From positions 1,888,001 to 1,952,000 of the forward strand of contig CAWJET010000001.1 of assembly GCA_963842085.1 (NCBI GenBank): DNA of 64,000 nt. Direction: 5' to 3'. Numbering within the stretch: the first letter of the stretch is position 1; the number at the start of each line of letters is the position of its first letter. Below the pieces are notes generated by a model. The model did no database searches. It was not told where the DNA came from and was given only the letters and a program-made list of their open reading frames with translations. Position numbers and translations under genes: made by a program. The stretch comes from an uncultured delta proteobacterium. Lineage in GTDB: Bacteria > Desulfobacterota > Binatia > Binatales > Binataceae. Below, piece after piece: positions 26,740-29,739 of this stretch.

Positions 26740-27576
26740 CTAATCGCCCGGCTCGTTTTTCCATTCCTCGGGATAGAGCAGCAGCAAATCCTGGCCGAGC
26801 GCGCGCACCAGGAAGCGCTGCGTCTCGTTGATCGCGCGTTCGAGCGCCCGCCCGCCAATCAGCCAATGCCCGCGGCCCGCGATCGTCGCCATCTTCGCGC
26901 CGATCGACTCGGCAAATTTTGTCGTCTGCGGCAGCGGCGCGAAGATGTCCGAATCGCCCGCCACGACGAGCCGCGGTGCGGCTTTGTCCGCCGCGGCAAA
27001 CTCGATCGCTCCGCTCGTCACATCGCTAGCCAACGCACCGGAGTCGGGCACCATCGCATTTATCAGGCCGTCGCGAGTGAACGGATCGGAATCGGCGATC
27101 AGCTCGAACAATATCCGTCCGTGCGGCGGCTTGATCGGTCCGCCCAGCATCATCGCGAGCCGATTCGCGAATCCGCCCACCAGCGGCGTGCGAAAGCCAG
27201 GTGCCAGCGGTGCGTACGCGACTGCGGCCTTTACTCGGCGACGCTCGCTGAGTTTGAGCGCGATCAATCCGCCAACACCGTGACCGAGCACGACTGCGTC
27301 GCGGCCCATCCCCTCGATTGCCTCGCCCGCCAGCGCGGTCAAATCGTTGAAGTGAAGTTTTTCGAGCGAGGGCGTCGCGCCTTTGCCGAACGCAGCCCGC
27401 AGATCCGGCACGAACACTTCCCATCCGATCGACGCGAGATAGCCGAGCACGAGTGCAAGATGCCGCGGCGTCGTGAACAGTTCAGGCAGCAGCACGATGG
27501 GCCACGCGAACTTGACCGGCTCGGGCAGCTCGCGTTGCGCGGGGATGCGGCCCAGTTCGATTTCGTTGTCGTCCAC
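26740..27576 (-). CDS. Alpha/beta-hydrolase fold protein lacking the nucleophile Ser
   Basis: Elbow LGHGVGG, acid GDSD, His GRGHW; GTG start inferred. Confidence 0.75.
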   Translation of the reverse strand: MDDNEIELGRIPAQRELPEPVKFAWPIVLLPELFTTPRHLALVLGYLASIGWEVFVPDLRAAFGKGATPSLEKLHFNDLTALAGEAIEGMGRDAVVLGHGVGGLIALKLSERRRVKAAVAYAPLAPGFRTPLVGGFANRLAMMLGGPIKPPHGRILFELIADSDPFTRDGLINAMVPDSGALASDVTSGAIEFAAADKAAPRLVVAGDSDIFAPLPQTTKFAESIGAKMATIAGRGHWLIGGRALERAINETQRFLVRALGQDLLLLYPEEWKNEPGD

Positions 27577-27587
27577 CGGACTGCGGA

Positions 27588-28850
27588 CTAGGCGGCCCGC
27601 GACGCCGCCGCCATCAGCCGCGCGAATCGGAACGACGGAAACGCGGCGCGCGGCGTAATCATCTGCGCGAACCTGATCATCTCGTCCGCCGCCCACTGTT
27701 CGCGGCTCGCCGCGCGATGCGCATAACGGCTGGCCGGATCGAGCCCGAGTTCCTGCGAGGCGCGAACGCTCGACCTGTAGTACGGCATCAACTCCGCATC
27801 ACGACGCCGCGTGAATTCAGCCAGCGTCGCCGCGGGAATCGAGTTGCTGCGGCCGTTGGAAAACCACTCGCGCGCGAGCTCGCCGGCGATCCATGCGCTC
27901 ATCAGCGCCAGCGAATGCCCCTGGCCGAACAGCGGATCGACGTGCAAGCCCGCGTCGCCGAGCAGGAGCGCTCCATCAGTCACCGGATTGCGATACGTGT
28001 TGTTGAGCAGGCCCGAGGAAAACACCTTGCCCGCCATCGTCGCGCCCTCGAGCATTTTGCCAACCGCGAACGAACGGTTCAGGTAGGTGCGCAGATTCGA
28101 CGCGAGGTCGGTGCGGAAGGTTTGCATCTCGGCCGCGTCGAATGCGGTCGCCGCGACCGTGAGTCCGTTCTCGCATCGACACAGCAGGTTGCCCGCGCCG
28201 GGGGCGGCCTCGAATTCCACGACCAATTCGTCGCCGAGGTTTTTGCGCGCGACGCCTTCGAAGTACGCATAGTAATAGGCGCGTGCGCATGGAACGTCGA
28301 TGCGCTTGAACGCGCCGATTCGCGCCGACGCGATCTGCGCGACCGTGCTGCGCATCCCGTCGGCGCCGATTGTCAGCGGCGCGCGAAACTCGTGGACGCC
28401 CGACGCATCCTCGCCGCGAATTCCGACCACGGCGCCATCTTCAATGAGCAGATCGACGAGCCTCAAGCGCTCGCGAAACGTGACACCGTCGAAACTCCGC
28501 GCCGCATCGATCATCGCAGCATCCATCAACACGCGCCCCAGACACAGTCCGCGATCGTCGGCGCCGTCGCGCGCGAGTTCGCCGCGGTAGTCGAAGTCCG
28601 GACCGATCGTGCGCATCCGCGCAAAGCGGACGCCGCCCAGGCGCTCGAGCATATCGAGCACGCCCATTCGCTCGAGCACTCTCGTTCCGCCACCGAGCAC
28701 GATGTGCGTCGAAAGCCGGTCCGACGGGAAGGCATCCTTATCGACCAGCAAAACGCGGCGCCCGTCGCGCGCAAGTAAAATCGCGGCCGCGCTGCCGGCG
28801 ACGCGCGCGCCAACAATTATCGCGTCAAAATTTTTCGCCGACTCGGACAT
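27588..28850 (-). CDS. FAD-dependent oxidoreductase (geranylgeranyl reductase/flavin monooxygenase-like)
   Basis: IVGARVAG, IGADGMRS, LLGDAG..DPLFGQG. Confidence 0.88.
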   Translation of the reverse strand: MSESAKNFDAIIVGARVAGSAAAILLARDGRRVLLVDKDAFPSDRLSTHIVLGGGTRVLERMGVLDMLERLGGVRFARMRTIGPDFDYRGELARDGADDRGLCLGRVLMDAAMIDAARSFDGVTFRERLRLVDLLIEDGAVVGIRGEDASGVHEFRAPLTIGADGMRSTVAQIASARIGAFKRIDVPCARAYYYAYFEGVARKNLGDELVVEFEAAPGAGNLLCRCENGLTVAATAFDAAEMQTFRTDLASNLRTYLNRSFAVGKMLEGATMAGKVFSSGLLNNTYRNPVTDGALLLGDAGLHVDPLFGQGHSLALMSAWIAGELAREWFSNGRSNSIPAATLAEFTRRRDAELMPYYRSSVRASQELGLDPASRYAHRAASREQWAADEMIRFAQMITPRAAFPSFRFARLMAAASRAA

Positions 28851-28923
28851 TAAGCTTGCGTACCTTCGCGGGCGATTGAACCCTATCATGTTGACCGCGC
28901 GTGTTCCCAAGCGAGCGCCACAT

Positions 28924-28957
28924 AAGGAAAGAGCCCCCTCTTTCAAGGGGGCTCTCC
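28924..28957 (-). terminator. Intrinsic terminator of the micropeptide transcript
   Basis: Minus strand GAGAGCCCCC-TTGAAAGA-GGGGGCTCTTTCCTT. Confidence 0.7.
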
Positions 28958-29058
28958 CGTGTTGCGAGGCCCTTCAGCCTCGGCTTATTCCAGCAGCAAA
29001 TCCTGGCAGCCTTAGCCAGCCTTCGGGGTATTGGCCCGAAGGTAAACTCGTTAAGTGG

Positions 29059-29163
29059 TTACTTCTTTTTGGTCTTTTTGGCCGGTTTCTTCTTTGCCAT
29101 TTTGCTCTTTCGCATCGGTTTGGACTTGGTGGCCTTTTTGGCCCGTTTCCTTCTCACTGGCAT
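29059..29163 (-). CDS. 34-aa Lys/Arg-rich micropeptide (histone H1-tail/protamine-like), absent from the ORF track
   Basis: MPVRRKRAKKATKSKPMRKSKMAKKKPAKKTKKK*, RBS AGAGGAGG, own promoter and terminator. Confidence 0.75.
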   Translation of the reverse strand: MPVRRKRAKKATKSKPMRKSKMAKKKPAKKTKKK

Positions 29164-29245
29164 AGGTACCTCCTCTTCCTAGGCTGCTACTGGACAAGCA
29201 CCCTTTTCTTATGGATGAGGGTTCATCCCTCATCGAGTCGGGCCG

Positions 29246-29274
29246 ATTATAGAAACATGTTATTCTCAAATCAA
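29246..29274 (-). promoter_or_regulatory. Sigma70-type promoter for the micropeptide gene
   Basis: TTGATT (29274-29269), 17-bp spacer, TATAAT (29251-29246). Confidence 0.75.
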
Positions 29275-29409
29275 GGGTTACGAGGTGATTTATAAAGAAA
29301 TTTTAAAGTCGAAAGAGTGCAACCTAACCGGTCTGTTTCGGCTCTTTAGAATGTCGTTCAAAATTAGATCGCTTGAACTGGACCAGGCGCTTGGATTACG
29401 ATTCCTCGG

Positions 29410-29739
29410 ATGACCCGGTTAAGCTTCGTACTCCGCCGCGAGTGGCTCAGCCTAATCTTCGGCGGGGTGCTCGTGATGCTGCTGCTGAGCGCCCTGCTCG
29501 GCAACCTGGGTCCGCGCGACCTGCTCGCCCTCCAGAGCCATCGCGCCGCGTTGGAGGAGCGCCGCAATCAACTGGCAGCGGACAACGCCGCGTTCAGAAC
29601 GCGCATTCAGAAGCTTCGTTCCGACGACCGCTATATCGAACGCCTCATTCGCCGCGAGCTTGGCTACGCCCGCCCCGATGAACTGGTGTACAAGTTCACC
29701 GGCGACGCGGATCGCGACGACGACACGCCGTCGCGCTGA
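29410..29739 (+). CDS. ftsB: Septum formation initiator (FtsB/DivIC family)
   Basis: One TM, coiled coil, YIERLIRRELGYARPDELVY. Confidence 0.8.
   Translation: MTRLSFVLRREWLSLIFGGVLVMLLLSALLGNLGPRDLLALQSHRAALEERRNQLAADNAAFRTRIQKLRSDDRYIERLIRRELGYARPDELVYKFTGDADRDDDTPSR

Follow-up and report, generated by a model that had tools for sequence, protein, structure and literature searches.

The minus strand of the 64,000-nucleotide (nt) stretch of Binataceae DNA analyzed here (the window; contig CAWJET010000001.1, positions 1,888,001 to 1,952,000) carries, between positions 28924 and 29274, a very small gene for a polycationic peptide of 34 amino acids (aa). A first-pass annotation had proposed a hidden transcription unit at this place, with a promoter, hairpins, a ribosome-binding site, an open reading frame (ORF) and a terminator, and this was confirmed in the sequence and by scans, every element listed being present. 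Comparison with relatives shows that the locus is a conserved, strongly signaled, protein-coding micro-gene whose mRNA has paired ends. The tiny gene varies on two kinds already known, basic proteins of the histone H1 type and mRNAs with paired ends.

The peptide contains 15 lysines and 4 arginines (19 of 34 residues, approximately 56%), has no aspartate or glutamate, and lacks a hydrophobic stretch; its mass with the initiator methionine is approximately 4.0 kDa. Its coding status was assessed on 72 distinct ORFs of 30 to 38 aa. The mean pairwise difference at the three codon positions was 0.171, 0.225 and 0.412, the third position being the most variable; the median ratio of nonsynonymous to synonymous substitution rates (dN/dS) was 0.17 over 1340 pairs; and the gap runs in the ORF columns were exclusively 3, 6 or 9 nt long. 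The retained ORF length, the in-frame gaps, the third-position variation and the low dN/dS together indicate that the gene codes, in agreement with the earlier reading of a translated, ultrabasic micropeptide. On these comparative grounds we conclude that a genuine gene for a polycationic protein lies here and that it is selected at the protein level.

Residues M1, K19, M22, K24 to K26, K30 and K32 were invariant among the 72 ORFs and S14 was retained in 71 of them, giving the consensus MPVKKKxxxxAxKSKPKLKSxMKKKAxKKKKK. AlphaFold2 returned no confident fold for the window peptide (predicted local distance difference test score 65.6, predicted template modeling score 0.18), with a single short helix at residues 15 to 22. 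We also observed that codon 22 (ATG, positions 29098 to 29100), unchanged in 72 of 72 ORFs, often has AAGAG 5 to 6 nt upstream; an internal start at this codon, which would yield an 11- to 13-aa polylysine product, is conceivable from the sequence.

Binataceae belong to the order Binatales of the Binatia, phylum Binatota. A DNA search matched the unit in 23 of the 24 other genomes of the genus and in 0 of 16 genomes from other families. Across Binataceae, 138 of 165 genomes gave a DNA match, drawn from 24 of 30 genera; for high-quality genomes the figure was 81 of 96. These tallies take in seven unpublished genomes (G018, G023, G117, G173 and G178 to G180), the omission of which lowers the family figure to 131 of 158; the claims made at the sequence level are independent of these seven. 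A profile built for Binataceae found one match each in 31 of 36 family genomes and none in 214 genomes of 19 other families. GAGGAGG precedes the ATG in distant loci as well: the ORF lies behind it in 40 of 40, and 38 of these ORFs are intact, at 30 to 38 aa. The other two, one with an altered C terminus (L088; 47 aa), as a frame slip within an A-rich run could produce, and one shortened to 18 aa (L090), could be assembly errors or real decay. Identity to the window over 18 loci of other genera was 78% for the ORF, 72% for the 3' untranslated region (UTR), 66% for the ftsB coding region and 61% for the leader. The first-pass annotation had proposed a check of conservation and covariation across relatives; the ORF and ribosome-binding site are indeed kept in them, and compensatory changes in the pairing were found. 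Two full-length copies or matches, on separate contigs or in separate places, were seen in each of two genomes of genus g1 (G004 and G060). Both genomes are listed with 5% contamination, so the doubling may reflect a mixture of strains and not a duplication.

The transcript was predicted to fold at -127.7 kcal/mol (z = -6.12), a value equaled by none of 100 shuffled sequences. RNAalifold, applied to a MAFFT alignment of 59 units, predicted unprompted that the leader and the 3' UTR form a helix. The full model counted on this alignment comprises the 5' hairpin, the long-range helix of 14 pairs, the three 3' UTR hairpins (A, B and C) and the terminator (Table 1). It was paired in 88.4% of cells, compared with 82.6% in shuffles (0 of 500 reached the observed value) and 42 to 55% with slid partners. 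For the long-range helix, 90% of cells were paired and 13 of the 14 pairs had changed on both sides; pair 106:378, for instance, occurs as UA in 31 units, CG in 17 and UG in 6. Changes on both sides were also seen in hairpin A (6 of 8 pairs; 92.5% of cells paired), hairpin C (3 of 6 pairs; 98%) and the terminator (8 of 12 pairs; 92%). Hairpin B is weakly supported, with four pairs, 87% of cells paired and no pair changed on both sides. A 5' hairpin of at least five pairs and a folding energy of -4 or lower was present in 49 of the 59 relatives, in differing sequence. The structured UTRs described at first pass (5' hairpin, 3' UTR hairpin and terminator) had been read correctly.

Duplexes between leader and 3' UTR averaged -24.9 kcal/mol for cognate pairs, -20.4 for noncognate pairs and -9.7 for shuffled ones, and none of 2,000 permutations was as good, the own partner being best or tied for best for only 13 of the 59 leaders. 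When the transcripts were folded individually, the helix, counted as formed if at least 8 of the 14 leader bases were paired to the 3' UTR segment, was expected in 55 of the 59 relatives. The compensatory changes across the aligned sequences show that the 5'-3' pairing is real.

Two partners for the leader had been proposed at first pass, at 28989 to 28998 and at 29006 to 29015. The first belongs to the covarying helix and stood. The second makes 9 pairs in the window and was paired in 98% of cells in the 12 rows of the genus, but in the 47 rows outside the genus the figure was 53%, on a par with the slid controls; it is unsupported there and was not kept beyond the genus. The same annotation had likened the pairing to the gating of translation in hok and aapA mRNAs, and here it did not hold. 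The 5' strand of the covarying helix spans -36 to -23 from the AUG, ending 8 to 10 nt short of the Shine-Dalgarno (SD) sequence; over the 59 sequences the SD had a median unpaired probability of 0.58 and the AUG one of 0.60; and the peptide has no hydrophobic segment. Because the helix ends before the SD, and the SD and AUG are largely unpaired, the mRNA appears to be closed around the ORF with its start site not hidden.

Table 1. Features of the unit and its surroundings in the window.
Feature	Positions	Strand	Basis or detail
A/T-rich upstream element AAATTTCTTTATAAAT, putatively UP-like	29288..29303	-	kept across Binataceae genera in alignment
Sigma-70-type promoter TTGATT-17-TATAAT	29246..29274	-	-35 TTGATT at 29274-29269, 17-nt spacer, -10 TATAAT at 29251-29246
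5' hairpin GATGAGGG-ATGAA-CCCTCATC	29214..29234	-	few nt past the putative transcription start near 29239
Long-range helix, 5' strand GCUUGUCCAGUAGC	29186..29199	-	RNAalifold, pair counts, ensembles
Shine-Dalgarno sequence AGAGGAGG	29169..29176	-	5 nt ahead of ATG
ORF, 34 aa, MPVRRKRAKKATKSKPMRKSKMAKKKPAKKTKKK plus stop	29059..29163	-	open reading frame list
3' UTR hairpin A CCUUCGGG/CCCGAAGG (also written CCTTCGGG/CCCGAAGG)	29020..29042	-	
3' UTR hairpin B CUGGC/GCCAG	29003..29019	-	
Long-range helix, 3' strand GCUGCUGGAAUAAGC, one bulged A	28983..28997	-	RNAalifold, covariation, duplex energies, ensembles
3' UTR hairpin C CGAGGC/GCCUCG	28965..28982	-	
Intrinsic terminator GGGAGAGCCCCC...GGGGGCUCUUUCC, then UU	28924..28958	-	terminator scan
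Divergent ftsB (DivIC family)	29410..29739	+	Pfam DivIC 8.7e-14
Alpha/beta-hydrolase gene, syntenic anchor common with Binatia family f8	26740..27696	-	ORF list

The promoter is conserved and near consensus, and the SD is strong. The promoter scored 10 of 12 in the scan, which gave one site compared with 0.4 +/- 0.6 in shuffles, and TTGAnn-N17-TATAAT occurs as a single copy in the 4.93-Mb genome (61.5% G+C), at this locus. The promoter TTG, the spacer ATAAC and TTTCTATAAT are kept family-wide in the alignments. The spacer (29252 to 29268, minus strand), which reads ATAAC...TTTC ahead of TATAAT, and the upstream element are both kept across genera, and the 15-nt core of the latter occurs once in the genome. 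This conservation points to a putative regulator site or UP element in addition to the two hexamers. At the other end of the transcript, the 3' UTR with its hairpins is approximately 135 nt long.

Small Lys/Ala/Pro-rich ORFs of 16 to 126 aa, with common neighbors and with complementarity between leader and 3' UTR, were found in at least 12 other Binatia families. Of 55 genomes of one of these families, f8, 39 matched the unit, and they represent 9 of 10 genera; 19 of 20 loci carry ORFs of 34 to 88 aa with variable PAKKA-type repeats. The f8 ORFs are preceded by GAGGAGGTCACT-ATG, and the leader segment CCUCCGCCUC is complementary to GAGGCGGAGG, a 3' UTR segment just ahead of the terminator. In 18 of 20 f8 loci the lysine-rich ORF is closely followed by a gene related to the alpha/beta-hydrolase gene of the window; FtsB is no more than 1.5 kb away in 2 of 20 and, from coordinates, approximately 1.4 to 1.5 kb away in six more genomes. 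In 11 of the 17 f8 loci examined (among L159 to L178) the hydrolase frame starts 0 to 7 nt past the terminator's T tract, too close for a separate promoter or an obvious SD to fit in between; the other 6 were unscorable. The corresponding gap to the next gene in Binataceae is 50 to 93 nt where scorable.

In family f9 the unit was matched in 24 of 25 genomes, and ORFs of 19 to 30 aa were present in 22 of 24 loci. RNAalifold predicted that leader and 3' UTR are joined there by a helix of 13 pairs, followed by a hairpin and the terminator, which is the order seen in the window; the helix is nearly invariant within f9 and so has little covariation of its own. Also nearly invariant is a 3' UTR box, CUGCUAGGCACGUA, located past the stop codon and ahead of the helix's 3' strand (alignment A3, columns 301 to 314; loci L229 to L251). 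RNAalifold paired part of this box with the Ser-Lys-Ala codons of the ORF. Family f11 has a variant of the helix, GCCUGUGAUGAGAGGG with CCCUCUCGCACAGGC, and other families likewise carry variants.

A start-site pattern (SD, ATG, Pro or Ala, KKK) was matched in 157 of 301 genomes of the class, with 19 of 20 families represented; its reversed control had 2 matches among those listed, and some matches to the pattern are other genes, including one in the window genome itself. When pattern loci were read, lysine-rich ORFs of 16 to 126 aa were found in 19 of 21, covering 11 further families, and the f14 and f20 loci were without one. The motif SKAKKKAPAKKK was found in eight sequences from four other families, with 1, 1 and 7 variable sites by codon position and with its serine encoded as AGC or TCN. 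This third-position variation and the switch between serine codon families show selection of the motif on the protein. From synteny, SD context, MPAKKK-like N termini and the KKKAP/G-KKK motif, we infer that the Binataceae peptide is homologous to the ORFs of the other families. The pattern match in the window genome (G000), on contig C1 near 1014590, is a second gene that begins MPTKKKPAKRKKAAKP and encodes approximately 190 aa, coiled-coil by eye; its start is kept in the genus, and it is a different protein with a lysine-rich N terminus.

The helix was also assessed across the class. Shuffles of gapless helices were mostly nondiscriminating (1 to 155 of 200 did as well). Duplex energies of segments of approximately 100 nt differed little, at -55.4 for cognate and -51.8 for noncognate pairs (9 of 5,000 permutations), with the own partner best in 3 of 23, and at least eight pairs between leader and 3' UTR were present in the minimum free energy structure of 16 of 19 units, given approximate transcript ends. 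As these tests are weak and the ends approximate, a class-wide helix is suggested, not proven.

Sixteen soil or peat sequencing runs recorded as RNA contain part of the stretch. Contigs lay on the unit, between 28933 and 29226, in all four RNA-library runs examined (from four studies), and one contig of 257 nt came from an RNA run of just 22.8 million letters. These contigs indicate presence alone, with no strand, ends or expression level, and RNA libraries can contain DNA. The flanks (28700 to 28915 and 29240 to 29500) had no contig cover in the four runs, which says nothing about transcript ends, and adapter letters past 29226 in one contig mark merely the end of a fragment.

Neither Pfam nor NCBIfam gave a match to the window peptide. 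A PDB profile search, which took in ribosomal chains, returned two rows at chance level (E 0.52 and 0.76), and HC2 (PF07382) matched neither the window peptide nor any of the 34 members of alignment A1. Rfam matched nothing anywhere in the window at gathering thresholds; the strongest subthreshold hit had 18.1 bits against a gathering threshold of 50, and none was convincing at E <= 10. A protein atlas yielded unannotated clusters alone; HC2 scored 0.82 there, no better than chance. When 1.84 billion representatives were searched with a profile, nine proteins were recovered, all plainly the same peptide and several with wrongly extended starts. Of 10 exact sequences looked up among approximately 15 billion predicted proteins, 8 were absent and 2 were entered as "hypothetical protein." No paper on the gene was found in the literature on Binatota, small ribosomal proteins or lysine-rich small proteins, full texts and supplements of which could contain data.

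The neighbor that the first-pass annotation had named as divergent ftsB is a member of the FtsB/DivIC family, and each of the 18 Binataceae loci tested has a divergent DivIC gene upstream. Downstream, the window has an FAD oxidoreductase gene and then the alpha/beta-hydrolase gene. In 16 Binataceae loci the downstream gene encodes an alpha/beta hydrolase (Abhydrolase_6) in 9, an FAD oxidoreductase in 5, an enoyl-CoA hydratase in 1 and IMPDH in 1.

We consider it somewhat probable that the peptide is a stand-alone polycation resembling a histone H1 tail, produced from a stabilized, end-paired mRNA. The closing helix, together with the 5' hairpin and the 3' hairpins at the ends, would make a short, compact mRNA that is protected from decay and long-lived, and the open SD and AUG would permit a high, steady output. 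The peptide would represent, in Binataceae, a Binatia-wide family of free-standing Lys/Ala/Pro-rich proteins (16 to 126 aa) and would act by its charge on polyanions such as nucleoid DNA, RNA or polyphosphate. The histone-like or polyanion-binding role suggested at first pass fits the Lys/Ala/Pro-rich ORFs found at the matching locus in other Binatia families. The H1-like repeat regions of Chlamydia Hc2, Pseudomonas AlgP, PhaF and the mycobacterial Ku tails are similar in being Lys/Ala/Pro-rich and of low complexity, as described in the accessible literature, and in having a variable repeat number, as in f8; an 88-aa f8 member also gave a subthreshold match to Pfam HC2. The repeats of AlgP and PhaF adjoin another domain. 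Those of Ku form a C-terminal tail (PMC3553676), the size of Hc2 varies with its lysine-rich pentamers between 165 and 237 aa (PMC2848022), and H1-like repeat regions bind DNA, polyphosphate granules or RNA (PMC9239181, PMC12818456, PMC3553676), according to the accessible parts of these papers. Unlike such regions, the basic stretch here makes up the entire protein, 34 aa in the window and down to 16 aa; the window peptide also lacks repeats, is fixed in length and carries the invariant S14 and M22, and it falls under every family threshold.

Several points weigh against this reading. We read the function from the composition of the peptide and from its relatives, whose proposed homology draws on synteny, SD context and a motif, the Binataceae profile having matched none of the 214 genomes of other families. 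The HC2 score of an 88-aa f8 member, at 30 bits, lies under the cut-off of 40, and the window peptide has no match. The tight length of 30 to 38 aa and the invariant S14 and M22 suggest a specific binding site rather than plain charge. The stabilizing role of the helix is a structural prediction, and the class-wide tests only suggest that the helix is general. Translation, finally, is deduced from signals in the sequence, and the RNA-library contigs, lacking strand and ends, may be DNA. A bolder version, which we hold to be improbable, is that free "histone tails" of 16 to 126 aa are among the most abundant products of soil Binatota, where they would condense or buffer polyanions, and that the peptide binds the helix of its own mRNA, with feedback on the level of the polycation.

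A different role for a very basic micropeptide would be that of a lineage-specific ribosomal or ribosome-bound protein of the bS22, bTHX, bL37 or bL38 type, seated in an rRNA pocket, for which the mRNA structure might serve autogenous control. The size of the peptide, its lysine and arginine content, the lack of an autonomous fold, the very strong expression signals, the tight length and the invariant S14 and M22 would all suit such a protein; small ribosomal additions are known in other phyla (PMC11851116, PMC10618245, in the accessible text), and these four are described there, too, as tiny, very basic, restricted to single lineages and easily overlooked in annotation. We nevertheless regard this as unlikely. 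The peptide has no sequence relation to the four and no match to PDB chains (best E 0.52), Pfam or NCBIfam; its gene lies outside the ribosomal operons; and the ORFs at matching loci range from 16 to 126 aa through repeat expansion, unlike ribosomal proteins. None of bS21, bL34, bL35 and bL36 has been replaced by it, since all four are present in the genome, and a comparison of the unit with the genome's rRNA for mimicry gave chance 13- to 17-mers alone. Far less credible is the idea of a type I toxin whose mRNA is kept silent through 5'-3' foldback. In toxin mRNAs, long-range pairing conceals the ribosome-binding site until the RNA is processed; icaR is a further bacterial mRNA with long-range 5'-3' pairing. 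The unit resembles hok and aapA1 in that a small ORF is enclosed by pairing of its leader with part of the 3' UTR over 180 nt away, here with compensatory changes. Control of toxin expression by mRNA folding (PMC5416894, PMC6733600) and the pairing of small hydrophobic toxins with antisense RNAs (PMC6563280, PMC8594479) are described in the accessible portions of those papers. Here, however, the peptide is 56% lysine plus arginine with no hydrophobic helix, and the long-range helix leaves out the SD and AUG. A promoter scan of the plus strand from 28700 to 29500 gave none for the antisense RNA that the first-pass annotation had suggested looking for, and the lone terminator-like site on that strand is the complement of the lysine codons. 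The gene is also single copy, its chromosomal context is fixed and its presence in the family is nearly universal. With two of the three defining features absent, the toxin reading is already largely refuted.

Two further explanations shift the emphasis from the peptide to the RNA. The ORF might be mainly a leader peptide whose lysine codons (15 of 34) sense lysyl-tRNA or ribosome speed and thereby set terminator read-through into the hydrolase or oxidoreductase genes. A strong terminator followed by genes on the same strand would be expected of such an attenuator, as would the position of the f8 hydrolase frame immediately past the T tract, and short terminated leader RNAs would likewise be abundant. 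This seems to us quite unlikely, because the window terminator lies approximately 100 nt past the stop codon and all supported helices are outside the ORF; with both its strands there, the covarying helix cannot be remodeled by a translating ribosome. No alternative fold was found, although no systematic search was made. Nonlysine residues are kept, the serine switches codon family and ORFs reach 126 aa, and the downstream genes vary by locus, are not lysine-pathway genes and in Binataceae begin only after the 50- to 93-nt gap. Alternatively, a structured small RNA or a 3' UTR-derived regulator could be the main product, with the ORF secondary in a dual-function RNA. The 3' UTR is more similar among genera than the ftsB coding region (0.72 versus 0.66), its loops and junctions are conserved besides its stems, the f9 box is invariant and the unit is covered by RNA-library contigs. 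Set against this, the coding signal is clear, no Rfam family matches, the conservation of the UTR is mostly explained by paired stems with compensatory change, and there is no known target or partner; we judge an RNA as the main product to be decidedly improbable, though the RNA may have a second role.

Annotation has largely missed a near-universal core gene of Binataceae that has similar genes in most Binatia families sampled. Under the preferred reading, of a free polycation made from an end-paired mRNA, the peptide would be a candidate major polycation, and a partner of the nucleoid, RNA or polyphosphate, in a widespread phylum that to our knowledge is still uncultured. With its ends held together by a covarying helix and its ribosome-binding site left unhidden, the mRNA would offer a clean natural case of the effect of closure on stability or translation, and the compact RNA and the peptide could serve as markers for these bacteria in soil metatranscriptomes.

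Two minor observations concern the surrounding sequence. A 17-nt exact copy of 3' UTR positions 29007 to 28991 occurs 2.1 kb away, at 26779 to 26795, inside the alpha/beta-hydrolase gene (E 0.076) and may be due to chance. A 228-aa frame on the plus strand (28609 to 29295) runs antisense over the entire unit, the reversed lysine codons reading as Phe or Leu without stops. It is very likely spurious, since the variable third codon positions of the peptide are the first positions of that frame, and a gene caller could choose it and so mask the real gene.

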